From the sequence record MT833283.1: a DNA stretch of 64,000 nt; one strand, given 5' to 3'. Of this stretch, positions 34-62,581 are shown in pieces. Position 1 is the first letter of the stretch. The number at the start of each line of letters is the position of its first letter. Both the position numbers and the translations under genes were made by a program. This DNA is from Escherichia coli phage vB_EcoS_Ace. The notes below the pieces were generated by a model. It was not told the DNA's origin and did not search any database. It saw only the letters and a program-made list of their open reading frames with translations.

Positions 34-62
34 ATTATACTAAATTCGAGGGCTTTAAGCAA
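34..62 (-). promoter_or_regulatory. Early sigma70-type promoter (TTGCTT-N17-TATAAT) reading leftward out of the window
   Basis: Reverse strand reads TTGCTT, 17-nt spacer, TATAAT, followed by GAGGAG RBS and an ATG near position 4-6; coordinates +/-2 nt. Confidence 0.5.
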
Positions 63-82
63 GTGAATTTTTAAATTATTTA

Positions 83-571
83 TTACATCTCAGCAAGTTC
101 TTGCTCAGTAATTACAGTATTGCATAGAGCATCAACTTCTTCATTACCACGAATACCTGAGTGACCTTTAACCTTAACAAAGGTTGGATTGGTATCATGG
201 AAGTTAATATACTGTTGAGTTAGTTTAAATGCTTCTTGCCAGAGTTCTAGATTAAGAGGAGTTTCACCATCTCCCTTCTTCCAGCCTTTCTTCTGCCAAG
301 ACCACATCCAGCTTTCCATACCATTTTTGCAGTAAGCAGAATCAGTGTAGATAATTACTGGACGATTATCTTTCTTAGTAGACCAACGAAGAACTTCTAC
401 AATTGCAGTAAGTTCCATTTCGTTATTAGTAGTTTTAGGGCTGAAGCCAGATTTAGAGCCAATACGATCATCATTATCATTATAGACAACGAATCCCCAC
501 GCACCTAAACCAGGATTGCCTTTACATGCACCATCTGTATATATGTGGAAAACCGACATTATTTGCTCCAA
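83..571 (-). CDS. rnh: Ribonuclease H
   Basis: 162 aa; N-terminal YTDGAC..GNPG and C-terminal VKGHSG..GNE..D motifs of the RNase H fold. Confidence 0.8.
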   Translation of the reverse strand: MEQIMSVFHIYTDGACKGNPGLGAWGFVVYNDNDDRIGSKSGFSPKTTNNEMELTAIVEVLRWSTKKDNRPVIIYTDSAYCKNGMESWMWSWQKKGWKKGDGETPLNLELWQEAFKLTQQYINFHDTNPTFVKVKGHSGIRGNEEVDALCNTVITEQELAEM

Positions 572-828
572 TCAATTTCAAGCCAAAAACCTTCACGTTG
601 CTCATACTTAGCTTCCACAACATAACCTAGTTTGCTAAGTTTTTGCATGACGCTATTTCTAGCGTTTTCTGAGTATTCAGTTAATCCCTGGATGTGACAA
701 TTAAATTCTTTATCTTTAATAGCTTTGTCAATCTCTACGGCAATAAGTGATTCTAGGTCAATTACTTCCTTTTTAATGCTAGCAATAGTATTTTGTTTTG
801 CTTCTAGAGCAGATAAAAGAATAGACAT
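559..828 (-). CDS. Hypothetical protein (89 aa)
   Basis: ORF overlapping the RNase H start by 13 nt (translational coupling layout); no recognisable motif. Confidence 0.4.
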   Translation of the reverse strand: MSILLSALEAKQNTIASIKKEVIDLESLIAVEIDKAIKDKEFNCHIQGLTEYSENARNSVMQKLSKLGYVVEAKYEQREGFWLEIDWSK

Positions 829-830
829 AT

Positions 831-1409
831 TTATTCTCCAATTACTAAAACATCATGTTGAGAAGATACACCACACATATAATCTGCACAATGCGTAAAA
901 GCCAGATCAATGATTTCAAATATATCATCTACATCTAAATCTGTGGCTCGACAATACGCAATAGCTAAACCTGTACGAATACTGGAAAGTACATCTTCTC
1001 CTCCACAGCCTACACCGGCATATTCAACTTCTAGAATAGAAGCATTAGATTGGAAAATAAAGATTCTTCCTTTGTAGAGCATAATAAATTGTCCCAGATT
1101 AGGTTCAGCATATTTTTCATTTTTCTTTTCGCCAAAATCTTTCTGGTTAAACATATCACGTAATTTAGGTACTATTTCCGTGTATAAATATTTATCATCA
1201 GAAATATCTGCTAAACGTGGTGGTACAGTAAAGCTATGCTCTAGTAATTGTCCCATGTAGAAGGAACTAGTGTATCCGAAGTACAAATCATCAGAGATTT
1301 TGAATACTTTCGGATTTTTAACCAGCAGTTTCGTATAGCCATTAGAACCCATACGATCACCAGCTAAGTATACTTTATCTTTATATTTAAATGCTACTAT
1401 GGCTGTCAT
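831..1409 (-). CDS. Putative Ntn-hydrolase, HslV/proteasome beta-subunit-like peptidase
   Basis: 192 aa; Met-Thr N-terminus followed by AIVAFKYKDKVYLAGD, later GVGCGG; resembles HslV TTIV..AGDGQ and GSGG motifs; by-eye similarity only. Confidence 0.4.
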   Translation of the reverse strand: MTAIVAFKYKDKVYLAGDRMGSNGYTKLLVKNPKVFKISDDLYFGYTSSFYMGQLLEHSFTVPPRLADISDDKYLYTEIVPKLRDMFNQKDFGEKKNEKYAEPNLGQFIMLYKGRIFIFQSNASILEVEYAGVGCGGEDVLSSIRTGLAIAYCRATDLDVDDIFEIIDLAFTHCADYMCGVSSQHDVLVIGE

Positions 1410-1439: not shown

Positions 1440-1468
1440 ATTATATTTAAATTTCACTCAGTAAGCAA
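1440..1468 (-). promoter_or_regulatory. Early promoter TTGCTT-N17-TATAAT embedded in a 15-bp perfect inverted repeat
   Basis: Reverse strand: TTGCTT, 17-nt spacer ACTGAGTGAAATTTAAA, TATAAT; precedes the 831-1409 gene. Confidence 0.55.
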
Positions 1469-4391: not shown

Positions 4392-4422
4392 TGATTTTCC
4401 TCTTTCTCACTATTTCAGGAAT

Positions 4423-4451
4423 ATTATAGCAAATCTGGTAGCGATTAGCAA
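4423..4451 (-). promoter_or_regulatory. Early promoter TTGCTA-N17-TATAAT upstream of nrdB
   Basis: Reverse strand TTGCTA, 17-nt spacer, TATAAT, followed by an AGAGGAAAA-type RBS and the nrdB ATG. Confidence 0.5.
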
Positions 4452-4458
4452 GTAAAAT

Positions 4459-4490
4459 TTCAAAGAAAAAGGAGACCCGAAGATCTCCTT
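4459..4490 (-). terminator. Rho-independent terminator downstream of nrdA
   Basis: AAGGAGA-CCCGAAG-ATCTCCTT hairpin with flanking T-runs on both strands. Confidence 0.55.
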
Positions 4491-6949: not shown

Positions 6950-7192
6950 TTACCAGTCTAGTTTTTCGGCTTGATTAATTACTTTTGCTTTCGCATTCGC
7001 CCTCAGAAGAATATCTACTGATGTTGAAAGTTCATTATAATTAAAAGGCCGATTTGGATTAGAGGCTACAATTTTCCACGCTAGGGTAGTCTTAGGACTT
7101 TCTTCCCCTTCCTTACGTGTAATCATATTAGCAGCACTCAGTGAAGTACGGTGGATCTTAGTTTTGCGGTGCAGATGTACGACGTTTCCCAT
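6950..7192 (-). CDS. Hypothetical protein (80 aa)
   Basis: ORF packed between phoH and nrdA on the same strand. Confidence 0.4.
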   Translation of the reverse strand: MGNVVHLHRKTKIHRTSLSAANMITRKEGEESPKTTLAWKIVASNPNRPFNYNELSTSVDILLRANAKAKVINQAEKLDW

Positions 7193-7955: not shown

Positions 7956-8019
7956 TCCTATAGTGTACTTCGCTAACAGAGGATCAACAAAAAGATCTTG
8001 TTTATCAACTTACAAATAT

Positions 8020-8048
8020 ATTATACCAATATATACGGGAGAAAGCAA
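8020..8048 (-). promoter_or_regulatory. Early promoter TTGCTT-N17-TATAAT driving phoH-nrdA
   Basis: Reverse strand TTGCTT, 17-nt spacer, TATAAT in the divergent intergenic region. Confidence 0.55.
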
Positions 8049-8240
8049 CTACAATTTTAAATAAGCCTATGATATTGCATTTAAATAAAAAATTTGCTTG
8101 CTTTTATTGGGAAATGTATGGTACTAGATAATCATTTTATATCGCGTACACGGGTGCGTGATTATACTATTTTTAGTAGAGGTTGGCAAATAAAATTTTT
8201 TGACTCAGATCAATTTACAGAATGTTATAGTAAAATATTG

Positions 8241-8269
8241 TTGACATCCGCCTTCGAATGAGTTATAAT
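8241..8269 (+). promoter_or_regulatory. Consensus sigma70 promoter TTGACA-N17-TATAAT upstream of nrdD
   Basis: Exact consensus -35 and -10 hexamers with 17-nt spacing, followed by GAAGGAGAG RBS and ATG at 8299. Confidence 0.7.
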
Positions 8270-8298
8270 AGTAGTCTTAGTTAGAGAAGGAGAGTATA

Positions 8299-10178: not shown

Positions 10179-10212
10179 CAGCCAGGTCGCTAGTCGATCT
10201 GGCTTTTATTTT
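10179..10212 (+). terminator. Rho-independent terminator after nrdD
   Basis: CAGCCAG..CTGGCT hairpin followed by TTTTATTTT. Confidence 0.5.
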
Positions 10213-10214
10213 AC

Positions 10215-10243
10215 TTGCTTTCTAGCTAAAACTTATGTATAAT
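10215..10243 (+). promoter_or_regulatory. Early promoter TTGCTT-N17-TATAAT with conserved ATAAATTTGAGAGGAG leader
   Basis: Hexamers and spacing read directly; leader motif shared with the PN25-like promoter at 16663. Confidence 0.6.
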
Positions 10244-10272
10244 TGATTTATAAATTTGAGAGGAGAAAACGA

Positions 10273-13034: not shown

Positions 13035-13059
13035 TTTTCATTAGTCCAATCCTGATTAC

Positions 13060-13086
13060 CGAGTCATTTTGGCTCGGTTTTCTCTG
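13060..13086 (+). terminator. Rho-independent terminator
   Basis: ACCGAGTC-ATTTT-GGCTCGGT hairpin followed by TTTTCTCT. Confidence 0.55.
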
Positions 13087-13125
13087 TGCTCAAAGACACT
13101 GATAGCACCTTCGGAAAAATTTTAC

Positions 13126-13154
13126 TTGCAGGATGCTCAAAATCTTGATATAAT
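13126..13154 (+). promoter_or_regulatory. Early promoter (TTGCAG-N17-TATAAT) with conserved leader
   Basis: TATAAT followed by ATTTATATTGAATTGAGAGAC leader resembling other early leaders; -35 is weaker. Confidence 0.45.
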
Positions 13155-13647
13155 ATTTATATTGAATTGAGAGACATTAGTAAAAATTGATTTTGCTAAT
13201 TTTTCTTGTTTACAATCCGCAATACGGAACAGTTAGGCTGCCCCATTAAGGGTTGTTTTAACTATTACTAGTGTTTATACTGCATTAGTTAATTATCAAT
13301 TAAGTGATCTGCGTACCCTGAATTCGGAAAGGTAAATCCAAACCGTGCATATTTAGCTCGTTATATAGGCAGAGCTTTATATGGGGGTGCGAACGAAAAG
13401 AGCAGCGAATGGTGACACGTCCAGTAGCCACCTACCAATAGGATAGTGAGGGCAATCAGAATAGGCTTAGCGGCCAATGACCTAGGTTCTGATCTGGATA
13501 AGAGTTAAGAGAGCGCAGCACTGAGGTATGATAACTTATTCATACTGCTTGATGATTAATGTTTGTGTAAATGGTAGTAATAGTTGTTCTATTCTTTTGA
13601 ATAGTCCTAAAGAAAGATATCCGAATAACCAACATAGGAGTATTGTT

Positions 13648-16437: not shown

Positions 16438-16654
16438 AAAGTGGGAAACAAGGAAGTTTCCCGTAAAAGAACGTAAAACTTCTGTTTACGATACTGCGGA
16501 GAAACTATGTAGGGTTGTACCACCTCGTCTCGCTGGCATCCCTAACGTCTCCATATGGTTACTTAAACAACGGAAGACTCGTGTGTCTCTTCGTATTGGC
16601 TTTGAGTTAGATAAAGTCTATGCTGAACTTGCTTCTTTGCTCAAAGAATCGTAA
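16421..16654 (+). CDS. Hypothetical small protein (77 aa)
   Basis: ATG at 16421 overlapping the end of the preceding gene; basic, KK-rich. Confidence 0.35.
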   Translation: MTAKNKKWETRKFPVKERKTSVYDTAEKLCRVVPPRLAGIPNVSIWLLKQRKTRVSLRIGFELDKVYAELASLLKES

Positions 16655-16662
16655 AAATTTAT

Positions 16663-16691
16663 TTGCTTTTAGGAAAATTTTTCTGTATAAT
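16663..16691 (+). promoter_or_regulatory. Phage T5 PN25-type early promoter
   Basis: Recalled PN25 sequence (pQE-vector T5 promoter) TTTATTTGCTTT.AGGAAAATTTTTCTGTATAATAGATTCATAAATTTGAGAGAGGAG matches except one position in the spacer. Confidence 0.85.
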
Positions 16692-16722
16692 AGATTCATA
16701 AATTTGAGAGAGGAGTTTAAAT

Positions 16723-17683: not shown

Positions 17684-17703
17684 CAGTTACTGAAAAATTT
17701 CAG

Positions 17704-17732
17704 TTGCTTAATCCTGTAATTCTTGATATAAT
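17704..17732 (+). promoter_or_regulatory. Early promoter TTGCTT-N17-TATAAT
   Basis: Hexamers and spacing read directly. Confidence 0.55.
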
Positions 17733-17790
17733 ATTCTCATAGTTTGAAAAAACTATTCTGTTTAATTCTTAATTAAGGAAATCGAAAAAT

Positions 17791-18584: not shown

Positions 18585-18893
18585 ATGAGCGATCAGGTAA
18601 ATCAAAACTATGAAGGACACGTTGACGACCAGTCCATCATGCTTTGGGAGAAGGAGGGAGAACAAGTAAGACTAACCGTATCTGAATTTCGTGGGAATCT
18701 ATACATGGGAATTCGTTACTGGCTCCAAGATATTACTGGAGAGTGGTTTCCAACGAAATCCGGCTTCTCTTTTCCTTATACCCTAGAAACTACGTCACAG
18801 CTATTCTACGCTTTTACGCAAATCCTCAGTGAATCCGAGGTCTTGCATGAAGTACAGAAACGAGCTGAAGAACTCAAAGCCAAGAATGCCTAG
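18585..18893 (+). CDS. Hypothetical protein (102 aa)
   Basis: ORF with ATG start; no recognisable motif. Confidence 0.45.
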   Translation: MSDQVNQNYEGHVDDQSIMLWEKEGEQVRLTVSEFRGNLYMGIRYWLQDITGEWFPTKSGFSFPYTLETTSQLFYAFTQILSESEVLHEVQKRAEELKAKNA

Positions 18894-18910
18894 TTCTTGG
18901 CTTTTTCTTT
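18879..18910 (+). terminator. Rho-independent terminator overlapping the stop codon
   Basis: GCCAAGAA-TGCCTAG-TTCTTGGC hairpin followed by TTTTTCTTT. Confidence 0.55.
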
Positions 18911-18920
18911 ATAAATGTAC

Positions 18921-18949
18921 TTGCTTTCGACTCAGTTTTCATATATAAT
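18921..18949 (+). promoter_or_regulatory. Early promoter TTGCTT-N17-TATAAT with ATAAATTGATGAGAGGA leader
   Basis: Hexamers and spacing read directly. Confidence 0.55.
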
Positions 18950-18978
18950 ATTTATATAAATTGATGAGAGGATCAATT

Positions 18979-20193: not shown

Positions 20194-20222
20194 TTGACAT
20201 TTTCGCCGCTTAGGTATATACT
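20194..20222 (+). promoter_or_regulatory. Promoter TTGACA-N17-TATACT between the two ligase ORFs
   Basis: Consensus -35 and near-consensus -10 read directly. Confidence 0.45.
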
Positions 20223-20285
20223 ATTATCATTCAGTTGAGGGATAGAAAGTTATGGCGAGGGTAAGCAAAGTTAGTTAAAATTGTA

Positions 20286-20314
20286 GTTGCTAAATGCTTA
20301 AATACTTGCTATAA
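20286..20314 (+). promoter_or_regulatory. Early promoter TTGCTA-N17-TATAAT with ATAAATTGATAAGGAAG leader
   Basis: Hexamers and spacing read directly; immediately upstream of the second ligase ORF. Confidence 0.5.
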
Positions 20315-20345
20315 TATTTATATAAATTGATAAGGAAGAAATTTG

Positions 20346-23440: not shown

Positions 23441-24327
23441 GTAGAATAACAGAACTACTTGATCTGAAAGGCATTGAATACAAAGACACAGGTGGGGATA
23501 TCCTCATCTGTTGTCTCAATCCAGATCATGATGATAAACACCCAAGTTTGCGTATTGATCCTGAATCAGGAATTATGCATTGCTTGAGTTGTGGCTTCGG
23601 TAGAGGAATACCGAGCATTTACCATTATTTTAATGAGACTCAGTACAGACAGTCACCAAGATTGTCACAAGTACGTAAAAAGATTTCAGAGATTAGGAAT
23701 GGATCTACGAATCTTGCAATTCCTGAATCTGCTTACCTTTTCGAAGGTGATTTCCGAGGTATCAGTTCTAAGACCTTGAAGAAATATTTTGCTTTCCAAC
23801 ATCAAGCAGACTGGGAAGGCAGAATTGTATTCCCAATAACAGATGCTGTTGGACGCAATATCCTATTCCTGGGACGTTCTATAAACAGTTCTGCCCCTCC
23901 TAAATACTTAGTAAAACCAAAACAAGTTTCACCACCGATTTTCCCCGTACGATATAATACACCAGTTCTTGTTCTAGTTGAAGGTATCTTTGATATGTTA
24001 AATCTAGAAGATAACGGTGTGGATTATGCTTCTTGCTGCTTTGGTACACATCAGTTTACATCTGATAACATTGCTGATAAGTTCAGTCCTTACATTATTG
24101 CTGGAGTAAGAGTAGTTGTTATCTTGCTAGATAATGATGCCTCTGGTAATAAAGCTGCTCAAGCACTAGCGAAGCTAATTCGTACAAAAACACGTTTAAC
24201 ACCTGTAGTTGGTAACTTCCTTCTTCCAGAAGGTAAAGACCCAGGTGATTTAAATAAAGAAGAGATCGATATGTTGGCTCAACGTATTGAAATTTTAGTT
24301 GCCGAATCGCTCAAAGATTTGGTATAA
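23437..24327 (+). CDS. DNA primase (DnaG-like: Zn-binding plus TOPRIM)
   Basis: 296 aa; CCLNPDHDDKHPSL..CLSCGFG Zn-binding motif; VLVEGIFDMLNL and LLDNDASG acidic TOPRIM motifs. Confidence 0.75.
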   Translation: MSRITELLDLKGIEYKDTGGDILICCLNPDHDDKHPSLRIDPESGIMHCLSCGFGRGIPSIYHYFNETQYRQSPRLSQVRKKISEIRNGSTNLAIPESAYLFEGDFRGISSKTLKKYFAFQHQADWEGRIVFPITDAVGRNILFLGRSINSSAPPKYLVKPKQVSPPIFPVRYNTPVLVLVEGIFDMLNLEDNGVDYASCCFGTHQFTSDNIADKFSPYIIAGVRVVVILLDNDASGNKAAQALAKLIRTKTRLTPVVGNFLLPEGKDPGDLNKEEIDMLAQRIEILVAESLKDLV

Positions 24328-24389
24328 TATATTGGTAAGTTAGAGAAGAAACACTGAAGTTATACTTACTTACCAAAAGGAGACTAAAT

Positions 24390-27447: not shown

Positions 27448-28796
27448 AGGTTGTTATATCTAATAAAGCCTATTTCAAGCCCGATGATGAACTCTGGGAT
27501 TATTGTAGTAAACAAACCACTTACCACATCGAGACAATGACTAGTAAATACCCTATTATGTATAAGAATAGTGGTGTTGTTGCTAAAGAGATTAAGTGGA
27601 TTCCCATTACGCGTCTGGATTTGCTAGATGCTAAGGGAGTAAAATACGAATTAGTTGATAAACGCACGTTAGCTCCGGTAAAAATACCAGAACCTCAGTT
27701 CAAGCTGCGTGAAGAAGATCAACTCCCTATATATGAAGAGTGTGATGATACTTGTATTATCAATGGTAAGCCCGGATTTGGTAAAACTATCCTAGCTTTA
27801 GCTCTTGCATATAAGTTTGGCCAGAAAACTCTGGTAATCTGCACCAACACATCCATACGGGAAATGTGGGCTGCAGAAGTTCGTAAATGGTTTGGATTCG
27901 AGCCTGGTATTATAGGTTCTGGAAAGTATAATATTGATCCACCAATCGTGGTCAGTAATATACAAACCGTGAATAAACATGCGAATAATCTTTCTAAGGT
28001 GTTCGGTACTGTTATAGTTGATGAAGTTCACCACTGTGTGGCTACAACTTTCACTAATTTCTTAGAGATCTCGTGTGCTCGCTACAAGATTGGTTTATCG
28101 GGTACGTTAAAACGTAAAGATGGCCTACAAGTTATGTTCAAAGATTTCTTTGGATATAAGATCTTTAGTCCGCCTGTCAATAACACTGTTCCACCCACAA
28201 TCCATAGGTACTCCGTGCCTGTTGAGTTATCAGGAAACCAGAACGTACCGTGGGCATTACGTGCTAACGATGTGTATAACCATCCTGAATATCGAGAGAC
28301 TATTATAAATCTAGCTCATTTATATGTGTCTATGGGGCATAAGGTTCTCTTTGTAAGTGATAGAACAGAACTAATTCAAACAATACTAGAAGCTCTCGCA
28401 CAACGTGGTGTTACAACCTATGAGATTATAGGTGCAACTCCTTTGGATGATCGATTGAGAATCCAGAAAGATGTAGCGGAGGGCGGACCTTGTGTACTTG
28501 CAGCAGCTCAGAGTATCTTCTCAGAAGGTATTTCTCTTAACGAGCTATCTTGTTTAATAATGGGGAGTCTCATTAATAATGAATCTCTCATAGAACAGTT
28601 AGCAGGCCGCGTTCAACGTATTGTTGACGGAAAGCTAGATCCGATTGTTGTAGATTTAATTATGAAAGGAGGTACTGGTTTAAGACAGGCTTCTGGACGT
28701 ATGGCCGTGTATCGCAATAATGCGTGGAAAACTATTACTATGACTCCGGAGAAAGCAGTACAATTAGCTAAAATTGCATTTGGCAACTGCTCATAA
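27444..28796 (+). CDS. SF2 DNA helicase (T5 D10-like)
   Basis: 450 aa; Walker A GKPGFGKT, DEVH box (VIVDEVHH), later helicase motifs. Confidence 0.75.
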   Translation: MKVVISNKAYFKPDDELWDYCSKQTTYHIETMTSKYPIMYKNSGVVAKEIKWIPITRLDLLDAKGVKYELVDKRTLAPVKIPEPQFKLREEDQLPIYEECDDTCIINGKPGFGKTILALALAYKFGQKTLVICTNTSIREMWAAEVRKWFGFEPGIIGSGKYNIDPPIVVSNIQTVNKHANNLSKVFGTVIVDEVHHCVATTFTNFLEISCARYKIGLSGTLKRKDGLQVMFKDFFGYKIFSPPVNNTVPPTIHRYSVPVELSGNQNVPWALRANDVYNHPEYRETIINLAHLYVSMGHKVLFVSDRTELIQTILEALAQRGVTTYEIIGATPLDDRLRIQKDVAEGGPCVLAAAQSIFSEGISLNELSCLIMGSLINNESLIEQLAGRVQRIVDGKLDPIVVDLIMKGGTGLRQASGRMAVYRNNAWKTITMTPEKAVQLAKIAFGNCS

Positions 28797-28808
28797 TTAT
28801 TGTATAAT
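28780..28808 (+). promoter_or_regulatory. Early promoter (TTGGCA-N17-TATAAT) with ATAAATTTGAGAGAGAAAG leader
   Basis: Read directly; followed by a short hairpin and no long ORF before the next promoter. Confidence 0.45.
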
Positions 28809-28879
28809 ATACACATAAATTTGAGAGAGAAAGTTTCGGATTGATAAGAAAGTCCGAAGCAGAAAAATAAAAATTGTAC

Positions 28880-45817: not shown

Positions 45818-45846
45818 ATTATAATAGGATTGGAAAATTTTATCAA
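45818..45846 (-). promoter_or_regulatory. Consensus-like sigma70 promoter (TTGATA-N17-TATAAT) inside the tail gene block
   Basis: Reverse strand TTGATA, 17-nt spacer, TATAAT, then AAGAGGAG RBS and the Dit ATG. Confidence 0.45.
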
Positions 45847-45899: not shown

Positions 45900-48800
45900 T
45901 TAAGAATTACCAAGTGATTTCAGGGTGGTTCCATTCTCATTAAGAGCCTGTTCCACGGCATCCCTGAAAGCAGCACTGTTGCTCGAAGCAAAGTCTCGGA
46001 AGCTAGCCGCATCCATCGTACTGATGTTCAGCACAATAGGTCTACCCGATGTACCCTTTGAAGATCCTTTGAGTTCATCAGTAGGAGTAGCCTTCATCGG
46101 AACCATAGGAGTGATTACTTCGGTACCATGCTCACCCATCTGGTAACTAACTCCAGGATACATATTACCACCTTCTGCACGAGGTACGAAAGAGTTAGCA
46201 TTACCAATCCCTTGATCACCTCGAATATAAGAAAGTTCTCCTGCGTTAGCCGACATAGAAACGTCTACGTTCTTCTGGCGCTCTCCAAGAGTTAAGTAAC
46301 CAGCTGTCTCAGCACCAGAGTCCCCAATAGAAGACATACCAGATGCAGAGGATGCTTGAGCAAGAGCCATAGCACCTGCTAAACCAGCCGCAACCATCAG
46401 AGGAATAGAGAATGGATACGGAACAGCTGTTGCTGCCTGCATCACCGCTACTGCCGTCTGGATAATGATTTGCTTCTTAGCCGCATCTTGCTGGATCTTG
46501 AGCTTTTCAGCCTCTAACTTCTTGATCTTAGCTTTGGATTGCTCAGATTTACCATCACGTTTCTGTTCTGCTGCAATAGCTGCATCAATAGCACTTACCT
46601 GTTGACCAACACTATACTGAATCATTGAAGATACAGTTTGCATACCCGCCGCTACTAGAGAAGTGGTATCCAGAGATCCTTGAGAGAACTGGATCATAGC
46701 GTTAGTTAGGTTACCCATGCTTTGTGCTACAGCAGTTGCTTCGGAGTTCAGCTCAGACAGCTTAGAAATAGCCTGGTCGTAAGATGCCATTCTATTCTGC
46801 ATATCTGCGAAGTTTTTATCTTCTCCAGTTAATCCAGTAGTAGGAGTATACGTAGCCCCTACAGCTGCACCTACAGAAGACTGCATTTCTGCATCACGCT
46901 GTACTCTTAGAGCCGCAAGCTGGGCTCTAGTTTCTGCTAGCTTTTTGTTATATTCTAGCTGAGCAGCAGCATTCCCTAAAGTTTTTTGCTTAAGGTCTTC
47001 GAATAACTGGATTTGCTCCTTGATACGTTCCGCAGCTCCCATTAAAGGATTTGCAGTAAATTTTCTTTGTTGCTCCTCCTCCCTGCCAGCAGCCATTTCC
47101 CTTTGCTGATCCTGACGGAATTTCCATATTTCACGTTCAATTTGTGCCTGAGCACGTCTTGATTGTTCAGCTTCCTTATGCTTATCAACCTGTTTGGAGT
47201 ACCATTCATACTTTTCTTTCTCGACAGTCAGTTCAAGGTTCAACTGAGCTAAACGATATTGAGTATCTGTCATAGTACGGTTATTCAGGAGAGCAATTTC
47301 ACGATCAACACCAAGAATCTTATCGGTATAATCCTTAACCTTCTTCTGAGCTTCCATACCCTGGTTAGTGATCTTGATACGTTCTAACTGAATCTTAGCT
47401 ATCTCACCTTCGATTGCTTTGTTACCCTTGTTAGTTTCTAGGACACGCTTAAGAGCTGCTTCCTGTTCTTCTAACTGTTGGATTTCCAGACGTCTACCAG
47501 CTTCCTGTGCTTTCTCTTTGTCCTTAGTCTGGTTATACACTTCGGCAATCTTCTGCTGAACTTCTAACTGATTCTTAGTTTCATTACCGGTTAGTTTTAC
47601 ATAACCAGCAAGAGCTTGTGAAGCAGTCTTCATCTCACTAAGGGTATTATATCCTAAGTTCAGGCTCTTAACATACTCATCAGCATTTTTACCAGTACCA
47701 GCAGAAAGAGACTCAATAGTCTTAATCGTATCTGATAGGGATGCACTAGTTTTAGCCGCAGTATTAGTATTCTGAGCAATGTTCTGGATATCGTTAGCTA
47801 AATCACTAGCAGTTTTCTTAGCCTGATCATATGCTTTCTGCTGTTCTGTCAGTCCTTTCAGAGTTGCGGAGTTAAAGTCATAAACCGCATCAGGGTCATT
47901 CATATCCTTCTGCAGATTAATCTGCTTCTGAAATTCTGGAGTAGCCTTAGCAGCCGCAGCACCAGCAGCTTGATATGCAGATTTCCATGCACCTAAGTTA
48001 TCGGTTGAATCAGTAACTTCCTTATCCAAACGTTCTACTTGGAGTGCCATAGCCGCAGTTTCAGCTACGAACTTCTTGTTTTCCTCCGAAGCACCAAGAG
48101 CCGCAGCACTTACCGGAACACCTTGAGCTACAGAACGAATTGCACCTGCGGTAAAGAAGTCAGCCTGTTCCATACGCTTGTCTAGATCAGCTTTTAACTT
48201 ATTACGCTTTTCTAGAGATTCTTTATACATATCAAGCGCTTTATTATATCCTTCCTCAGAAGCGGAAAGACTTAAAGCTACAGCACCAACATTAGTTGGG
48301 TCAATCTGACGGTTAGTTTCTTCCTGTGCTCTAGCAGCAGAAGCCGAGATAGATGCTTGAGAAGTATAGAATACTGCGTTGATAGAATCAATTACCGGCC
48401 CTAAATACTTAGCAGCAGCCTGTTGAACCTTTCTCAGGGCAGCATCAGCATTAGCAGCAAACTGTTCCCATGGAGTTGCACGAAGTACGTCATCCAAGTA
48501 GCCGAAACGTTTAGTAGATTCAGCGATTACTGCGTTAGCATATGCTTGTTGCTTTTGGAAAGTGGAAAGACTATTGACGTTATACGTAATACCTGTGTTA
48601 GCAGCATTTAACTGTTTAACGTAGTCAGCGTAAGCATCATTAAGACGAATAGTAACACCAAGTTCGTCCAGAAGTTCGATTTCTTGTTTGGATACACCCT
48701 TGATTACACGGTTAAGTGCATCAGTCATATCAACACCAAGAACAGCAGCAGCACGACGAGCTACTAGACCAAATTTATTAAGTTGTTCAGCATCAAATCC

Positions 48801-50029: not shown

Positions 50030-50090
50030 TTTAGATGCTGATGATTTAATGCATTTATCAGCAAAATCGGCAACAGCATCTAGTAACTGC

Positions 50091-50495
50091 TTACGCTTTT
50101 GAGCTACGAAAAGTGTCTAAGTGGAACACTGTCTGGTTGATCCAAGAATCAAACGCAGCAGAGTTCTGCATAAGCATGATAGCATTATCGCGACTAAATG
50201 GAACTTCAGTAGTAGGATCAGCTTCAGTTTCGATAAGCATCAGCTTCTCAACATCTCCAATCGTCAAGCCAGTCCAGCCAGCAATTGCAGTATCAACGAA
50301 AGCTTCAATAAACTTATCATCGTCCTGAACTTGAATCATAGTACCGTTAACCCACTCGTCACGCTTAGCGGAAGAGATAACACGCTTAGATGCAGCACGA
50401 GACATGTAGTTCAGTTGCAGCTTGAAGTTAGGCATACCTGGGTAAGCCAGCTCAATAGTACGAGTTTCAAGGGTAATATCTTTTAAATTGATCAT
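50091..50495 (-). CDS. Hypothetical protein, possible tail assembly chaperone (134 aa)
   Basis: Position upstream of the tape measure; overlaps the stop of the preceding gene. Confidence 0.4.
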   Translation of the reverse strand: MINLKDITLETRTIELAYPGMPNFKLQLNYMSRAASKRVISSAKRDEWVNGTMIQVQDDDKFIEAFVDTAIAGWTGLTIGDVEKLMLIETEADPTTEVPFSRDNAIMLMQNSAAFDSWINQTVFHLDTFRSSKA

Positions 50496-53320: not shown

Positions 53321-54088
53321 TTAGGTTCCTTGATTAACCTTGATTTTATATCTAGAGTGAATCAGGTCTCTTGCAGCTTTTGCGATTGCTTCCCCAATAA
53401 GTTTTTGAGGGTTTCGAGCGCCAGGGTAAGGTCGTAGAGAAAGTCTTCGATATGTAGAAACTGCGGGGTTGAACACAGAGTAAGGACGAACCATATAGTT
53501 ATACGTCACATTCAGCTCTGGAGCACCTTTACTAGTTTCTGCATCACGTAACATAACATCTTTAATCTTTAAGGAGTTAGCAAAGCGACCAGTTCTGAAC
53601 TTCAATGGTGCCCCTGCTTTTTTCATATCCTTGATTAAGTATTCCTTAGCTACTATCTCAAGAATAGCACGCATGTTACTATTTGATACGAAACGACCGG
53701 AAGCACCTGTTACTGCACCTGAATAGCCATCTTCAGTATCTCTAGGATCTCCAAAGTTTACCTGAACTCTACCGGTAGAACGTTTTTTACCTACAGCAGA
53801 ACGTTTACCTGCGGTTGCTTGAATTAAATTCTCTAGAGCGCCTAAATCACCAGAAAGATCTAAGTTAGAAGAAACAGCCTTCAGTATAGATGCTGTCCTA
53901 ACATTTAATAAGTCTTGTGATACTGGTTTTGAGAATTTGAAAGATACCTGTGCAACTGTGCCATCTCTTGTAGGATCCTTCAAACCAGTCTCAACTGTAT
54001 ATACAACAGTATTCTTATTATTCTCAGATCGTCCTGCAGTATCTAGCTGCTCTTTAATAATTTGTCTAGCTAGATCAGAAAGAGCCAT
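53321..54088 (-). CDS. Head-tail connector/completion protein candidate
   Basis: 255 aa; position only. Confidence 0.4.
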   Translation of the reverse strand: MALSDLARQIIKEQLDTAGRSENNKNTVVYTVETGLKDPTRDGTVAQVSFKFSKPVSQDLLNVRTASILKAVSSNLDLSGDLGALENLIQATAGKRSAVGKKRSTGRVQVNFGDPRDTEDGYSGAVTGASGRFVSNSNMRAILEIVAKEYLIKDMKKAGAPLKFRTGRFANSLKIKDVMLRDAETSKGAPELNVTYNYMVRPYSVFNPAVSTYRRLSLRPYPGARNPQKLIGEAIAKAARDLIHSRYKIKVNQGT

Positions 54089-54659: not shown

Positions 54660-56036
54660 TTAAGATGCAGCGTACGCACCAGATACAACGCCATTTTCGA
54701 AGTAACGTTGCAGGTTAACACGCTGAGTAACGTAGTATGCGTCACGCTGTTTGCCAGCTTGGCGCTCACGTTCAACAGTAACAGCACGCTGACGCGGCAT
54801 TACGAAGTTATCTTTATAAACAATAACTGCGAATTCAGCGGAAGCAGCTTTAGCTGGGAAGTACTCAGAAACTACAACTGGCAGACCATAAATACGACCA
54901 ACCTGACCCTGCAGTTTAACAGCATCATTACCAACCTGGGCAACATCCTGCCATTCTTCATCTTCCAGCAGATCGTAGTAAGCATCCATAGATACGATCA
55001 GTACCAGTTTGCTCAGTTTCAGACCATGACGGCCCAGTTTACGACGTAGCTTGGAGATAGTCTTAGCAGTTACCAGAACAGAACCGTCAGCTTTAGCTTC
55101 GGTAACAACCTTAGCACCATCATCAGCAGCTAGTTTCAGCAGACCCTTAGGCTGACCAGTACCATTACCGGACATGAAAGCTTCTTCGATAGAAACAGCG
55201 TGTGCTTCGATCAGACGCTTACGCAGCAGAGGCAGCAGGGAGAAGATTGCATCTTCTTCAGTTTCATCAGTGATGAAGGACTTAGCAGCCAGCTTGTAAG
55301 TTTTGAAGCTGATTTCAGTCAGTTGACCTTTAACTTCGTCACCAACAGTTTCGTCAGTACCGAATTTGGAAGCATCTACCCAAGTAGCACGACCAGCTTC
55401 TGGTTCAACGAGCATTGTAAGGATTTTGCTGGACATTGGCAGTTCATCGAACAGTGCACCAACTACCAGTTCCTTCTGCAGGTCACGGATAATACGGGTA
55501 GAGAAGATAGTTTCGTATGCTTCGCTAGACATGGAAACGGAAGAAGAACCGTTAACAGCTTTAACGTGAGCCTTACCGTGTTCAGTTTCGAATACGTCCT
55601 TCTCCATCATATAAGACAGAAGAACCAGTTTCTCAACTTCATCTTCGAAAGCATCCTGAGTGCCATAAAGAGCTTTAGCTACGCTATCACCAACGAAGGA
55701 ACGACCTTCACGAGCTGCCAACAGAGACTTAATTTCGTCCTGAAGACCAACGATAGTTTCCTGTTGCTTTTCTACAGTCTGTGCAAACAGTTCTGCGCTC
55801 TTCTTAGACTTCTCGTCCAGGTTCTTAACTAGATCCAGAGCTTCTTCCAGACGCTTACGGTCTTCACCAACAGCTTTAGATACTAGGTCGTTCATACGAG
55901 CCAGTTCTTTTTCTTCCTGCTCTTCACGCAGACGCTTAGCTTCCGCAGCTTTCTGAGCAGCAGTCAGACCTTCCAGAGATTTAGCCAGATCACCCAGACC
56001 AAGTTCTTCCTTCAGCTTATTAATATCAATAGTCAT
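54660..56036 (-). CDS. Major capsid protein precursor (pb8-like, HK97 fold with N-terminal scaffolding domain)
   Basis: 458 aa (the length recalled for T5 pb8 precursor); ~160-aa coiled-coil N-terminus then HK97-type body; host-like codon usage. Confidence 0.85.
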   Translation of the reverse strand: MTIDINKLKEELGLGDLAKSLEGLTAAQKAAEAKRLREEQEEKELARMNDLVSKAVGEDRKRLEEALDLVKNLDEKSKKSAELFAQTVEKQQETIVGLQDEIKSLLAAREGRSFVGDSVAKALYGTQDAFEDEVEKLVLLSYMMEKDVFETEHGKAHVKAVNGSSSVSMSSEAYETIFSTRIIRDLQKELVVGALFDELPMSSKILTMLVEPEAGRATWVDASKFGTDETVGDEVKGQLTEISFKTYKLAAKSFITDETEEDAIFSLLPLLRKRLIEAHAVSIEEAFMSGNGTGQPKGLLKLAADDGAKVVTEAKADGSVLVTAKTISKLRRKLGRHGLKLSKLVLIVSMDAYYDLLEDEEWQDVAQVGNDAVKLQGQVGRIYGLPVVVSEYFPAKAASAEFAVIVYKDNFVMPRQRAVTVERERQAGKQRDAYYVTQRVNLQRYFENGVVSGAYAAS

Positions 56037-58937: not shown

Positions 58938-60254
58938 TTATTTCCCACGGGAAATTGAGTAAATTCCATAACGCAGTGCGTCACAAAGGTGAGAGTTCGC
59001 ATCATGACGTGGTTTTTCACGTGATAATTTCTCTTCGCCCTCCTGGAAGTCCCACTTGTAGTTCGCTAGGGCGTGGATCAATGAGGTACATGAAGCATCT
59101 ACGATGATCTTACCTTGCTGGAACAGTGCTTGTAGGCATGCCAGACCATCTAGGACAGATTTCTTAGCAGGAGCAGAAGCGATTTCATGTTCATATGCCA
59201 AGTCCTGACGGAACTGAGCAGCAGCGGAGTCTACAAATATACGATCAACGTTATAACGATCTATACAGTGCTGTATGTAAGCAGCGTGTTGAGCTGTAGT
59301 CTTTTCAGCCTGCTGATACTCTTCTAGTACGTAATAAACATCAGTATCATAGTGATACTTGATAGTAAGAACTGCTGTAGGGTCACGATAACCAACGTCG
59401 ATACCAAGTAATGTTTCGAAAGCCTCATCATCTTTAAAGAAGTGACGCATACCTTTGAGGTCTTTAACGTGCTCGATAGCATTGAAGGTATCAAAGATCT
59501 GACCTTCGAATACGGAGAAGTCAGCCTCATATTCTTGACGGAAATAGTTTTTACTAACAGTACGACGCGCTTCTTCGATATCGTTCAGGTCAGCACGTGG
59601 GTTATCCCGATAGGTACCATGAATAGATACCCAGTTAGGCAGCGTCTCATTAAATCCTTTCTCATAGAACTCTTTGAACCAGTTACCACCACGAGGTGTG
59701 GAAATAAACAGAGCCTTAGAGTTTGGCTTATCTAGGGTAGGACGTAGCTGAATATCGAAAGCTGCACCACCAACATCGGAAATCGCTGCTTCGTCAAAGA
59801 TGATGAAGTCATACGAACGACCAACCGCGGAGTCAGCCTGCGCCGCAGAAGCCAGCTTAAAGAGAGAACCATTCGCTAGTTCAATCTCTTTATCTTTTGC
59901 GTTCTCACGTTCAGTCTGTAACCCATACTTCTTAATAAGACCACGAATCTGTGACCAACCTATGTTAGCCAGTGAGTAGTTAGGTGCAACTACTAGCACC
60001 TTTACATTAGGCTCCAGAAGTTTTAGGAACCCAAGTGTATATGCGATGAATGACTTACCTACACGACGTGATACACATGCAGTCACGAAGCGGTGTCTTG
60101 GGTCTTCCAGCGCATTAATGATTGCAATCTGAGGGGCATTAGGTGTAATCCCCTCTTGAGCTAGAATGTTAGAGACTGGCAGACGGAAGAATCGTTTGTC
60201 AATACCAAAGTCAATAACATCTGTGGTGTTAATATAGTCTCTAGAGACTTTCAT
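58938..60254 (-). CDS. Terminase large subunit
   Basis: 438 aa; Walker A-like VSRRVGKSF, Walker B IIFDEAA, C-terminal RNase H-like nuclease fold with acidic residues. Confidence 0.8.
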   Translation of the reverse strand: MKVSRDYINTTDVIDFGIDKRFFRLPVSNILAQEGITPNAPQIAIINALEDPRHRFVTACVSRRVGKSFIAYTLGFLKLLEPNVKVLVVAPNYSLANIGWSQIRGLIKKYGLQTERENAKDKEIELANGSLFKLASAAQADSAVGRSYDFIIFDEAAISDVGGAAFDIQLRPTLDKPNSKALFISTPRGGNWFKEFYEKGFNETLPNWVSIHGTYRDNPRADLNDIEEARRTVSKNYFRQEYEADFSVFEGQIFDTFNAIEHVKDLKGMRHFFKDDEAFETLLGIDVGYRDPTAVLTIKYHYDTDVYYVLEEYQQAEKTTAQHAAYIQHCIDRYNVDRIFVDSAAAQFRQDLAYEHEIASAPAKKSVLDGLACLQALFQQGKIIVDASCTSLIHALANYKWDFQEGEEKLSREKPRHDANSHLCDALRYGIYSISRGK

Positions 60255-60736
60255 TATCTCTTACCTCCTCCTGCTAGAGCGGTAATAAGATTCATATAGT
60301 TTTCGTCACCACTTCCAGCAATAATATTATTCTGAATATTAGTCTGGTTAGCCGGAGTACGGGCTGCTGCCTTCACTTTCTCCAGTTCTACCATCATTTT
60401 CATTTCTTCCATCTTCATCTTGTGCGCCTTCCAGAGAATATCCATGATATCCTGGTCAGAACCCATGCCAGTTTCTTCAAGTTCTTCCAGCTTACGCTTG
60501 ATAACTTCATCAAGAACTCCGAATAAACGGTCACGATTACGGAAGCCACTTTCCATAAATATATCGTTGAGATAGTTTTTAACTTCTCCACGATTCATTA
60601 TATCACGAAATGCAATCTCAGACATACCAAGACTACGAGCAGCGGCAGGAACATCACTACCACACTGTAAATAGGCTTCAATAACATCCATGCCTTCGGG
60701 AGACATGAGATCGGGAACTAATACATCATTTGCCAT
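60254..60736 (-). CDS. Terminase small subunit candidate
   Basis: 160 aa, directly upstream of the large subunit with overlapping stop/start; HTH-like segment [17 protein letters not shown]. Confidence 0.5.
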
Positions 60737-60746
60737 ATATCCTCCT

Positions 60747-62528
60747 TTAGGTTAGGCGTTGAACTGTTACACGTAGTCTTGGTAAGAAGATAGCAGCTGC
60801 TTCTGCAGCATGGATAATAACACCCAACTCAACGTTGCCATTACCAAGGTTTTTAATAGTATAAATATAACCATTCCTTCTAAAAATCATACTATCTGGT
60901 CGGCTCGCCCATTCCTGTGTATAACTATATGCTGTAGTACTATGATATGGTACTAGATATCCTGGAGGCAATGTTAGTATTTGATGAAATATACCATCAC
61001 CAGCAGTATAACTTTGTTGCCGTCTACCTTGTACCTGCCAAGCACTACCTCCGTAAGTACGCACAGGCATTCCAGCAGTATTAATATTACCCATAATAAC
61101 TTCAGTGGTTAGTATAATAGTAGAATGAGCATTAGGCAGACCCAACCATACAGTAGCTAAAGGCTGATAATAGTTGCCTGCCGCTGGGTAAGATGGATTT
61201 ATATCATCCCCAACATAAGTACTAGCAACGTTACCAGGGAATAATCGTAGTGGAACTGTAGAGGGACTCCAAACTGGACCATGTTCATTTCCTATGGAAT
61301 TACTATTAGTATCTACATACCATTGTTTACCTGCACCAAACTTATATAAACTAATCTGAGAGGCAGCACCCCCATAGTTAACTGGAGACCATAATCCACC
61401 ATTGCTAGAGCCAATGAATTCACATCGCGCAGTAGTATCCCCAAAAACCCCAGTATACGCAGCATTATTACCTATATATTCCATATCTGAACGATAACCT
61501 AGATTACCAAAGGCATTCTGATTAATAAATTTATAACCAGAGTTAGGTAAACTTACCCCTTTAATAGTAAAGTTAGATGGAGAGATAAGGATATCAGAAC
61601 CAGTAAATGGATTACCAGAAACCACCATATTACCATTAGAGTAACGTAGGTTTAAAACATACCAGATAACCTTAGTAGGTGTAATATTATACCAGTCCTG
61701 AATATAAACAGTGTTAACAGACTGAGAACCCATATTACTAGCCGAACCTCTACAGGTATATAGATAAGGAAAAGTAGGGGAGGAATAGATATGATTTACA
61801 TTTGCCGGTATTTCTTTTTTCTTACCTATATAGCTGCGAATATTTGAGTTACATACGTAGAAATGATCATGACCTCTACCGGCAGAACCAATAGGTGCCT
61901 GCCAGTTAGGATCCCAATAGTTTAAATCTCCGGCATTTATAGGTACATTAATAGTTCCTCTAGGAAATCCAAGCATTTCATATGCTCTGGCAACCGCTTC
62001 CCCTACCGGAACACCCCCAGGTCTCACTATACCCACATCTGATGATTGTATAATTGTTCCGCCAGTACCTTGTCTGGCTATAGACTCTTCATGTCCTAAT
62101 CCACTATTATAAATATAAGTACCGTGTGCTAGGCTATCGCCGATTGCAAAAGCAGAACTTAAGCCTACTTGAGCGAATGCTCTAAAACCTGGATCCTCCG
62201 CAAGAGTTAAATAGCTACCAACCTGAGATTGAGTACCATTGAGGAATCCTCTATGGGTACCATTAATCTCAATAGCAGTTAATATAACTCTACCCGGATC
62301 ATTGGATTTAATATTTATAATATCCCAAGGCATCTGAGTAACAAAGTATCCATTACCTGCATTACCTAGAGCCGCTTCATAAGTCCCATCAACCAGGACG
62401 AAAGGCATATCTGAGTGAAAGATACTATTAGTATTTGGAGAGTAGTGTTCACCAGTATCACCACCATTAGCAGCGTTTAGCGATAATACAGTTTTACCAT
62501 CACTAAATTTTCCTGCGAAAAAACTCAT
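60747..62528 (-). CDS. Receptor-binding tail protein candidate (pb5-like)
   Basis: 593 aa, Gly/Asn/Tyr-rich beta-type protein, divergently adjacent to the llp-like lipoprotein gene as in T5 (oad-llp); by position and composition only. Confidence 0.5.
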
Positions 62529-62552
62529 ACAATCTCCTTCTTTAAAAATGTA

Positions 62553-62581
62553 TTTGCTTAGATCCCTCTATTTTGCTATAA
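62553..62581 (+). promoter_or_regulatory. Early promoter TTGCTT-N17-TATAAT upstream of llp
   Basis: Read directly; followed by ATAAATTAAACAGAGGAAC leader and ATG at 62612. Confidence 0.55.

Follow-up and report, generated by a model that had tools for sequence, protein, structure and literature searches.

Predicted early-class promoters of a T5-like phage share an upstream tract, a core and a transcribed start

The promoter PN25 of bacteriophage T5 is the basis of the 'T5 promoter' in expression vectors. All promoter classes of T5 are transcribed by sigma70 RNA polymerase; primer extension has placed Ppol among the early promoters, PG25 is late, and the main difference between early and late promoters is an ATATT discriminator (Klimuk 2020). 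In phage AKFV33, 32 T5-like promoters were described with TTGCTw, 17–18 bp, TATAATA, AAAATT/AAAAATT at −43 and TAAATT at +1 (Niu et al. 2012, PMC3326045). This is the same consensus as the one presented here, but the AKFV33 promoters were pooled, and the transcribed motif was not separated from the ribosome-binding site or by temporal class.

Information beyond the hexamers has been explored for PN25, whose +1 position was confirmed by a −12/+2 oligonucleotide, TATAATAGATTCAT (Klimuk 2020). According to cited accounts of Kammerer 1986, altering positions +3 to +20 reduces the yield of full-length RNA about 10-fold, and promoter escape is fastest with the native transcribed sequence; the N25 transcribed region is likewise reported to govern escape, with an antiDSR version giving one tenth of the RNA (Kammerer 1986; Hsu 2025). 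The downstream-sequence work concerns one promoter (Kammerer et al. 1986; Hsu and co-workers), while other members of the family described below carry variants. T7 A1 and lambda PL and PR are likewise host-polymerase promoters with information beyond the hexamers, such as upstream A-tracts and an extended −10, but their −35 hexamers and transcribed regions are unlike those of the family. The early promoters of T4 are also read by the host polymerase and carry extra-hexamer information, and their −35 and transcribed regions differ as well. In the N25 escape literature, T7 A1 and lambda PL have open-complex stabilities and escape positions that differ from those of N25.

We analysed a stretch of 64,000 nucleotides (the window) from a T5-like phage of the genus Epseptimavirus, with 99.5% identity to phage EH4. 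The stretch runs collinear with T5 46–111 kb; the phage differs from T5 in genus and in host, taken as Salmonella, and some T5 homing-endonuclease genes that adjoin promoters are missing from the window. No tRNA genes were found in the 64 kb, and Rfam at gathering thresholds gave no match anywhere in them. The annotation of Seafire, a close relative, gives ribosome-binding sites and terminators but not promoters.

A generic sigma70 consensus scan of the window returned 46 sites against 53.5 expected. In A/T-rich DNA such a lack of enrichment makes the hexamers by themselves weak proof, and because the scan did not discriminate, a family-specific modular matrix was adopted. A single-block matrix from eight seeds was overfitted and was rebuilt from two modules with a variable spacer, sites being listed above a threshold of 8. 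The exact core TTGCTT-N17-TATAAT occurs eight times against 0.04 expected (100 shuffles, maximum 1): at 34–62, 1440–1468 and 8020–8048 on the minus strand, and at 10215–10243, 16663–16691, 17704–17732, 18921–18949 and 62554–62582 on the plus strand. An initial annotation of this DNA had listed the same eight, all of which exist, although the last was placed one position off, at 62553–62581. It had also suggested a position weight matrix scan, which extended the family to 14 and added an unlisted site at 24299 (+) with 33.7 bits; the members score 33.7–59.6 bits, and the highest score among 30 shuffled windows was 18.9. Among its near-variants, 4423 (−), 13126, 28780 and 28880 belong to the family by the matrix, the one given at 20286 really lies at 20287, and 8241 (+) and 20194 (+) had to be dismissed as promoter-like sites without the family flanks.

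The perfect TATAAT is found in all 14 members, and the spacer is 17 nt in 12 of them and 18 nt in the other two. The −35 hexamer is TTGCTT in eight and TTGCTA in two, with TTGCAG, TTGCCG, TTGGCA and TTGTCA occurring once each; such non-consensus versions in four to five of the 14 count against the early-class reading. Half of the sites (7/14) carry the TGn of an extended −10. Conservation continues on both sides of the core, in an upstream A/T block around −43 (A−42, T−40 and A−37 in 14/14, A−43 in 13/14), in the discriminator (A−6 in 13/14, T−5 in 12/14, A/T-rich from −4 to −1) and in the transcribed start (T+2 in 13/14, A+3 and T+7 in 12/14 each). Blockwise identity is 0.70 for the upstream (UP) block, 0.77 for the −35, 1.00 for the −10, 0.56 for the discriminator and 0.65 for +1 to +7, against 0.38 in the spacer and 0.31 at +21 to +40.

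Each of the 14 sites falls one-to-one on a "promoter" feature of T5 (GenBank AY543070), including PN25, PN26, PK28a, P31A/B, Ppol and llp, some of the matched features being unnamed and possibly computational predictions themselves. The sites are positional orthologues with 71–100% identity over about 80–150 nt. The site at 16663–16691, earlier called PN25-like, is the PN25 orthologue itself: over 150 nt it shares 94.7% identity with T5, and the one mismatch within the core falls in the spacer. What is common to the T5 early promoters and the window sites comprises TTGCTw-17/18-TATAAT, the −43 A-tract, the ATATT-type discriminator, the ATAAATT(T)GA start and the downstream genes; the few substitutions lie mainly in the spacers. 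Since every site matches an annotated T5 promoter, the observation holds but was known before, and the architecture of the family, having been published, is ordinary and not new.

The window-derived matrix also performs on the whole T5 genome, where it finds 34 sites, 31–32 of them at annotated promoters. All 34 lie either at 16–76 kb, in the early region, or at llp, and the matrix detects no annotated pre-early or late T5 promoter (PH22, PG25, PJ5, P12, holin, oad). The idea that these sites define the early regulon is supported as to class, through orthology to T5 promoters, but the window holds just part of the set, with about 19 more in T5 at 16–46 kb.

All 14 members face and are co-oriented with orthologues of early genes, namely those of nucleotide metabolism and replication and an llp-like lipoprotein, and the late structural region of the window contains no member. 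On the minus strand, the promoter at 8–77, taken to span the upstream A/T tract through +20, has TTGCTT-17-TATAAT at 34–62, a predicted +1 at 27 and an ATG at +22; it corresponds to T5 46337–46411, and the downstream T5.090 orthologue extends past the window start. The promoter at 1414–1483 (−), with the same core at 1440–1468 and an ATG at +25, serves ORF 831–1409, an HslV-family peptidase according to the Seafire annotation. At 4397–4466 (−), TTGCTA-17-TATAAT (4423–4451) is combined with a TGn extended −10 and an ATG at +26; this promoter lies directly past a terminator (4469–4490), serves nrdB, frd and thy, and corresponds to T5 50061–50135. The last one on this strand, at 7994–8063 (−) with TTGCTT-17-TATAAT at 8020–8048, is 98% identical to T5 53638–53712 and is followed by about 58 nt of leader, then phoH and nrdA, with GTAAGTTGA at +1 and no adjacent ribosome-binding site.

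Among the plus-strand members, the promoter at 10200–10269 (TTGCTT-17-TATAAT at 10215–10243; T5 55708–55782) lies directly past a terminator (10180–10204), with the transcribed start ATAAATTTGAGAGGAG and an ATG at +24. It is followed by the promoter at 13111–13180, which has TTGCAG-17-TATAAT at 13126–13154 and a predicted +1 at 13161 (T5 58999–59073). The PN25 orthologue at 16648–16717 (TTGCTT-17-TATAAT at 16663–16691) starts at 16698 with ATAAATTTGAGAGAGGAG and has the ATG of D2 at +26 (16723). The PN26 orthologue at 17689–17758 (TTGCTT-17-TATAAT at 17704–17732) has a leader of about 52 nt to D3, and a 7-bp hairpin, ATAGTTT-GAAA-AAACTAT, at the 5′ end of its transcript. Directly past the terminator 18876–18904, the promoter at 18906–18975 (TTGCTT-17-TATAAT at 18921–18949, ATG at +24; T5 65284–65358) serves a small ORF and then ligA. 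The PK28a orthologue at 20272–20341, with TTGCTA-17-TATAAT at 20287–20315, is 100% identical to T5 over 149 nt and serves ligB, D5, the D6 helicase and the primase. The Ppol orthologue at 24284–24354, which was absent from the first list, has TTGCCG-18-TATAAT at 24299–24328 (T5 70987–71061), lies within the 3′ end of the primase gene and has a leader of about 55 nt to the DNA polymerase.

The orthologue of P31A at 28765–28834 (+) carries TTGGCA-17-TATAAT at 28780–28808 and ATAAATTTGAGAGAGAAAG, without an adjacent start codon, and that of P31B at 28865–28935 (+) carries TTGTCA-18-TATAAT at 28880–28909, with an ATG at +22 and an operon that includes D11–D15 and dut. Only one family member is found outside the replication-gene block: the orthologue of the llp promoter at 62539–62608 (+), past the late structural region and near the right end of the window. 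It has TTGCTT-17-TATAAT at 62554–62582 and an ATG at +24, and serves the gene of an 88-aa lipoprotein (62612–62878) whose signal peptide ends in LTGC.

Other sigma70-type promoters in the window provide a contrast. The one at 8161–8189 (−), TTGCCA-17-TATAAT, is the orthologue of T5 53776–53850 and precedes the 8020 promoter in a tandem arrangement; it is a non-member because its A-tract is present but the discriminator and the transcribed-region motif are absent. The nrdD promoter at 8241–8269 (+) has the perfect consensus TTGACA-17-TATAAT, yet lacks the family flanks and reaches 12.9 bits. The PK28b orthologue at 20194–20222 (+), TTGACA-17-TATACT, in tandem with PK28a, is likewise excluded by its flanks (below 8 bits). 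The orthologue of PG25, late in T5, at 45818–45846 (−), has TTGATA-17-TATAAT followed by ATTGTT, in place of the early discriminator, and by ATTAAGAGGAG; it lacks the transcribed-region motif and scores 13.5 bits.

The conserved leader of the initial annotation proved to be shorter than proposed. The start ATAAATT(T)GA at +1 is common to the family, but a perfect copy of the whole 18-mer ATAWATTTGAGAGAGGAG occurs at 16698 alone, with two further sites at 2–3 mismatches. TATAAT-N6-ATAAATT occurs seven times in the window against 0.016 expected. A merger of leader and ribosome-binding site holds for nine to ten members, which have GAGG, GGAG or AGGA at about +12 to +18 and begin translation between +22 and +26, and fails for the remaining four to five, which lack an adjacent ribosome-binding site; members without an adjacent start codon are those at 8020, 13126, 17704, 24299 and 28780. 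That the leader may contribute to promoter strength agrees with the literature on changes at +3 to +20, which establishes it for PN25 alone, and positions +1 to +20 of the window orthologue (16698–16717) are identical to the 20-nt sequence studied there.

Comparison with relatives offers a further view of this region. Between window and T5 the zone-by-zone comparison is noisy, with the 1440 pair mis-anchored on a second TATAAT in T5, and we used the llp pair and the overall trend: at llp the flanks and spacer have diverged, while −1 to +13 is nearly identical. Distant relatives were scanned with a core-only matrix of upstream tract, −35 and −10. Sites picked by these elements alone have ATAAATTGA-like starts in Klebsiella, Pectobacterium and Vibrio AG74 relatives, and the block from −6 to about +10 is kept from Salmonella and E. 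coli phages to those of Klebsiella, Pectobacterium and one Vibrio lineage. In Vibrio phage D306 the core is present with a different start (TCAAAATCA), which shows that the architecture can exist without this exact transcribed motif. A logo from IMG/VR was left out as evidence because its loci had been selected with the full matrix, and any argument from it about the transcribed region would be circular.

Judged from their sequence architecture, the statistics, the gene context and the orthology to T5 promoters, the 14 sites are very probably sigma70 early-class promoters of a T5-like phage, in which near-optimal elements are stacked and the transcribed start serves both escape and the 5′UTR. 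Unmodified host RNA polymerase with sigma70 would read them after DNA entry in the second-step transfer. The A-tract aAAAtT at −45 to −40 would serve the alpha C-terminal domains as an UP element, followed by TTGCTw at −35, a 17-nt spacer (18 in two) with a T-rich 3′ half, the perfect TATAAT, the A/T-rich discriminator ATaTtt and a start at A, and then ATAAATT(T)GAgAGAGG, A/T-rich at first and purine-rich later. The transcribed part may have two jobs: the quick escape of a very tightly bound polymerase, as shown for PN25, and, in most members, that of the whole 5′UTR of 21–25 nt with its Shine-Dalgarno sequence. We infer that all 14 would fire in the window phage and, by analogy, that the escape role would extend from PN25 to all of them.

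Can the conservation be explained otherwise? The region downstream of the −10 may be kept mainly for translation, as an A/U-rich, unstructured 5′ end with a well-spaced, strong Shine-Dalgarno sequence. With the start codon so close to +1 in most sites, the entire 5′UTR is the motif, and its purine run GAGAGG is the ribosome-binding part. However, +1 to +10 (ATAAATTGA, GTAAGTTGA, ATAGTTTGA) is also kept in the four to five members without an adjacent start codon, the motif is present at T5 P16-17, which precedes the stable RNAX, and the effects of +3 to +20 changes on RNA yield and escape of PN25, in the cited accounts, were seen in vitro, free of translation. We consider a mainly translational role conceivable, though on the unlikely side. 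Several members directly past terminator hairpins form terminator–promoter modules at gene-block boundaries, an arrangement that would suit a repeated element, the similarity then stemming from a promoter cassette that was recently duplicated or moved. We rejected this as highly improbable: the spacer (0.38) and the sequence outside the elements (0.31–0.37) are near-random against 0.56–1.00 in the functional blocks, and each copy is positionally orthologous between the window phage and T5, which means that the copies are old.

Another possibility is that the discriminator and first bases (ATATTT / ATAAATTGA) mark early promoters as a regulatory target that gpT5.026, D5 or another phage factor recognises at early shut-off, or, from the resemblance of TATAAAT to a −10, make sigma70-bound polymerase pause close to the promoter. 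The T5 early promoters that score have this block, annotated pre-early and late ones, which are also strong, lack it, and it is conserved out to Vibrio phage AG74, but common descent and selection for strength explain this conservation too. We know of no factor that binds such a DNA block of discriminator and first transcribed bases. gpT5.026 cuts the binding of RNA polymerase to the N25 −12/+2 strand 8-fold, and early transcripts are up in the gene 026 mutant, but in vitro it alters transcription by no more than two-fold (Klimuk 2020). A role as regulatory target or pause site seems doubtful.

Read as early-class promoters, the sites provide an annotation that is transferable to the phage group, including at least one close relative lacking promoter entries. 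For T5-like genomes, a simple matrix suffices to tell early promoters apart from pre-early and late ones. The members also amount to a natural collection of PN25 variants, and their pattern of conservation reveals which transcribed positions have been kept in evolution.

The promoter at 13126 (+) has no gene directly after it and appears to launch a long untranslated RNA instead. This structured leader, at 13161–13647 (+), precedes the gene of the origin-binding helicase (GTG at 13648). Rfam at permissive thresholds gave one meaningless 12-bit match to it and nothing else, and our literature search on a T5 leader RNA or origin gave nothing relevant. The leader might be the sole observation here that is new biology. 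As a joint and quite speculative proposal, the block between −6 and roughly +10 could, beyond optimising escape and translation, determine the early class in cis across Demerecviridae, as a handle for damping or pausing early transcription, and the RNA from 13161 could regulate the helicase gene or activate a replication origin. The leader is about 490 nt long, conserved and supported by covariation, with the invariant islands GAACAGTnnGGCTGC and GCTTAGCGGC and a modelled structure of P1, P2 and a closing helix, and 441 Demerecviridae records match it.

Over a 6-kb piece, the window shares 99.5% identity with Salmonella phage EH4 and 99.1% with phage Seafire, relatives that belong to the genus Epseptimavirus, family Demerecviridae. 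As the window runs collinear with roughly 46.3-111.5 kb of phage T5, it takes in the rightward half of the early region, here comprising genes of nucleotide metabolism and replication, then the late structural region and, immediately ahead of the right terminal repeat, the llp/receptor-binding-protein locus. An 80-aa ORF at 6950-7192(-), between phoH and nrdA, has a Seafire RefSeq counterpart labelled 'tail length tape measure protein'; given the small size and the early-operon position, this looks like an annotation error.

The motif TTGCTT-N17-TATAAT occurs exactly eight times in the window, compared to 0.04 expected from shuffles. The initial annotation had listed all eight, at 34-62(-), 1440-1468(-), 8020-8048(-), 10215-10243, 16663-16691, 17704-17732, 18921-18949 and, corrected by one base, 62554-62582. 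It had also proposed a position weight matrix scan, which we ran with two modules separated by a variable spacer, namely upstream tract plus -35 hexamer and -10 hexamer plus 25 nt downstream. This generated a family of 14 distinct sites with 33.7-59.6 bits, while the maximum in 30 shuffled windows was 18.9. The family consists of the eight exact sites, five previously suggested near-variants (4423-, 13126+, 20287+, 28780+, 28880+), and 24299+, which had been missed. Two further suggested variants, 8241+ and 20194+, lack the family flanks; as sigma70 promoters both are good, and 8241+ has the perfect consensus TTGACA-17-TATAAT.

When the sites are aligned, conservation extends well beyond the two hexamers: a shared aAAAtTnnA block lies upstream, the spacer is T-rich in its 3' half, the discriminator is rich in A/T, and the start reads ATAAATT(T)GA, with purines after it. 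Relative to the predicted transcription start, A at -42 and T at -40 are found in all 14 sites, A at -6 and T at +2 in 13, and A at +3 in 12; TGn precedes the -10 hexamer in seven. The combination TATAAT-N6-ATAAATT occurs seven times in the window (0.016 expected). Only the PN25 orthologue carries the conserved leader exactly as first described, and two others come within three mismatches of it; the element that is really shared is shorter.

Several family promoters have terminator hairpins directly upstream, at 4469-4490(-), 10180-10204(+), 13058-13078(+) (48 nt upstream of 13126) and 18876-18904(+). Where the two abut, the T-run of the terminator merges into the upstream A/T tract, so that terminator and promoter form a compact module at the operon border. 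The divergent control region at 7956-8298 (340 nt) includes a hairpin (8141-8162) and three promoters: 8020(-), 8161(-) with TTGCCA-17-TATAAT, and 8241(+), which serves nrdD. Promoters 8161(-) and 8241(+) drive early-type genes, yet the early discriminator and transcribed-region motif are absent from both.

How do these sites relate to known promoters? All 14, together with 8161-, 8241+, 20194+ and 45818-, each fall on one of the 75-nt "promoter" features of the T5 record AY543070. Site 16663 corresponds to PN25, 17704 to PN26, 20287 to PK28a (100% identical over 149 nt), 20194 to PK28b, 24299 to the polymerase promoter Ppol, 28780 and 28880 to P31A and P31B, 62554 to the llp promoter, and 45818 to the late promoter PG25. 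As an independent check, a matrix derived from the window only was run over the whole T5 genome with a cut-off of at least 20 bits. It yielded 34 sites, 31 of them on annotated 75-nt promoter features and one at a feature named P-F 30; the other two are one weak site repeated in both terminal repeats. Every strong match lies at 16-76 kb or at llp, and the annotated pre-early promoters (PH22 and those next to it) and late promoters (PG25, PJ5, P12, holin, oad) all fail to score in this genome-wide scan. Judged by this distribution, the family is the T5 early class, in agreement with the early regulon originally proposed.

The PN26 orthologue is predicted to start its transcript with a perfect 7-bp hairpin, ATAGTTT-GAAA-AAACTAT, at +1 (17739-17756(+); a 6-bp version exists in T5), which may act as a stabilising 5' stem-loop. 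The P31A and P31B orthologues are arranged in tandem, 100 nt apart (28780-28935(+)), and the P31A-orthologue transcript, which has no adjacent start codon, contains a hairpin TTTCGGA...TCCGAA ahead of P31B. At the right end, an 88-aa lipoprotein gene (62612-62878(+), signal peptide MKKLLAIVVAAVVLTGC) is divergent from a 593-aa receptor-binding protein gene (60747-62528(-)). T5 llp/oad show the same arrangement, but with divergence in both proteins and no more than 71% identity in the promoter region.

Such a family could also stem from a recently spread promoter cassette. Taken in pairs, the 14 sites have a mean identity of 1.00 in the -10 hexamer, 0.77 in the -35 hexamer, 0.70 in the upstream tract, 0.65 at +1..+7 and 0.56 in the discriminator, compared to 0.38 in the first 12 spacer bases, 0.37 at -55..-46 and 0.31 at +21..+40, the low values being near those for random A/T-rich DNA. 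Every family site has a positional orthologue in T5. The llp promoter, with surroundings about 71% identical and a mostly different spacer, retains its upstream tract, the two hexamers and -1..+13. These observations speak against such a cassette and point to selection on discrete elements.

Does the transcribed start serve transcription or translation? At 9-10 of these 14 promoters a start codon follows at +22 to +26 with a Shine-Dalgarno at about +12..+18; here the conserved stretch is the whole 5'UTR and does merge with the RBS, as initially suggested. This does not hold for 8020, 13126, 17704, 24299 and 28780, which have long leaders or no adjoining gene. All five keep the first ten transcribed bases, as does T5 P16-17 ahead of the stable RNAX. 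This retention argues that +1..+10 belongs with the promoter, and the purine run belongs partly with the ribosome.

Experimental work on T5 offers a mechanistic frame. Promoters of every temporal class are served by sigma70 RNA polymerase (Klimuk et al. 2020). Using primer extension, Klimuk et al. (2020) identified Ppol as early and PG25 and PJ5 as late; they describe ATATT as common to early-promoter discriminators, and their PN25 +1 coincides exactly with the position predicted in the window. According to the overview by Hsu and Han (2025), the N25 open complex is very stable, promoter escape limits initiation, and escape is fastest from the native N25 +1..+20. Replacing +3..+20 by the antiDSR cuts full-length RNA about 10-fold (Kammerer et al. 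1986, as cited by Hsu and Han 2025), so that for PN25 the proposed contribution of the leader to promoter strength is borne out by the literature. Given the tight, escape-limited N25 complex, the family promoters most likely combine stacked near-optimal recognition elements, which would bind polymerase very tightly, with an A/T-rich, purine-rich transcribed start that would let it depart quickly and would double as a minimal, unstructured 5'UTR bearing the Shine-Dalgarno. Early timing results mainly from DNA entry only at second-step transfer, and phage proteins take part in later damping (Klimuk et al. 2020). That the -6..+10 block itself is the cis-determinant of the early class, as a shut-off target or a sigma70-dependent pause signal, appears unlikely.

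The promoter family as noted is nothing new. T5 promoters are annotated in AY543070, an identical consensus, with its A/T regions at -43 and +1, is given in the AKFV33 paper (Niu et al. 2012, PMC3326045), the BF23 genome paper transferred T5 promoters by alignment, and earlier papers cover both the discriminator motif and what the transcribed region does (Klimuk et al. 2020; Hsu and Han 2025).

To follow the family further, a core-only matrix scoring nothing downstream of the -10 hexamer (15 matches in the real window, 0 in 20 shuffled ones) was run on the early regions of distantly related Demerecviridae. Klebsiella phage FZ41, whose polymerase is 77% identical, has 12 sites, most with ATA(A/G)(A/T)TTGA starts, and Pectobacterium phage DU_PP_V has 8, in part with such starts. 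Vibrio phage AG74 (57% identical) has 5, four with starts such as ATAAATTGAAAAGGAG and ATAAAGTTGAGGGAG. The 6 sites of Vibrio phage D306 (52% identical; 4607-24921 of the retrieved sequence) keep the upstream tract, a TTGCnn -35 hexamer and TATAAT, but their transcribed-start consensus is TCAAAATCA, a natural counter-example to the ATAAATTGA start. IMG/VR viral contigs contain the exact TTGCTT-N17-TATAAT-N6-ATAAATT in more than 120 stretches, most of which belong to contigs of 104-128 kb, the span of T5-like genomes.

One member merits separate follow-up beyond the promoter family. Downstream of promoter 13126+ lie about 487 nt in which no ORF is credible (13161-13647(+)) and then the gene of an origin-binding (UL9-like) helicase, starting at 13648 according to the Seafire annotation; T5 has the same gap. 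Counterparts of this leader lie at L001:14055-14545 (from T5), L125:7962-8442 and L126:8759-9239 of the retrieved sequences. Homologues occur in 441 phage records, mostly unannotated, and no Rfam family matches the leader. The RNA folds better than shuffles (z = -3.1). An alignment of eight T5-like sequences is near-invariant over its first ~105 nt, where all eight agree in about 97 of 103 columns, and the middle differs strongly between two groups. The groups, folded separately, agree in layout: two hairpins come first, the 5' one and a second, then a variable domain of ~320 nt enclosed by a long-range helix, and lastly a 3' hairpin. In the close-relative alignment 99% of cells pair, and 21 pairs are altered on both sides compared to 0-3 with partners slid.

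FZ41 and DU_PP_V share the promoter-plus-gap arrangement and the invariant islands TTGAGAGA, GAACAGTnnGGCTGC and GCTTAGCGGC, and contribute further compensatory changes, which fall in the 5' hairpin and the closing helix. With these distant relatives, 13 pairs are altered on both sides and 94% of cells pair, compared to 1-5 and 33-52% with partners slid. Compensatory changes from three Demerecviridae lineages support the 5' hairpin, the second hairpin and the closing helix. The leader is a candidate new structured RNA or origin-associated transcript: it may regulate the helicase gene, or it may be a transcript that activates a nearby replication origin. The latter idea comes from early electron-microscopy work, which reportedly placed a T5 origin near the genome middle. 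In one IMG/VR contig (L010:5140-5200, columns 1-40 of the leader alignment), unrelated sequence replaces the -35 hexamer and spacer of the leader promoter, and the TATAAT box and leader transcript are retained.
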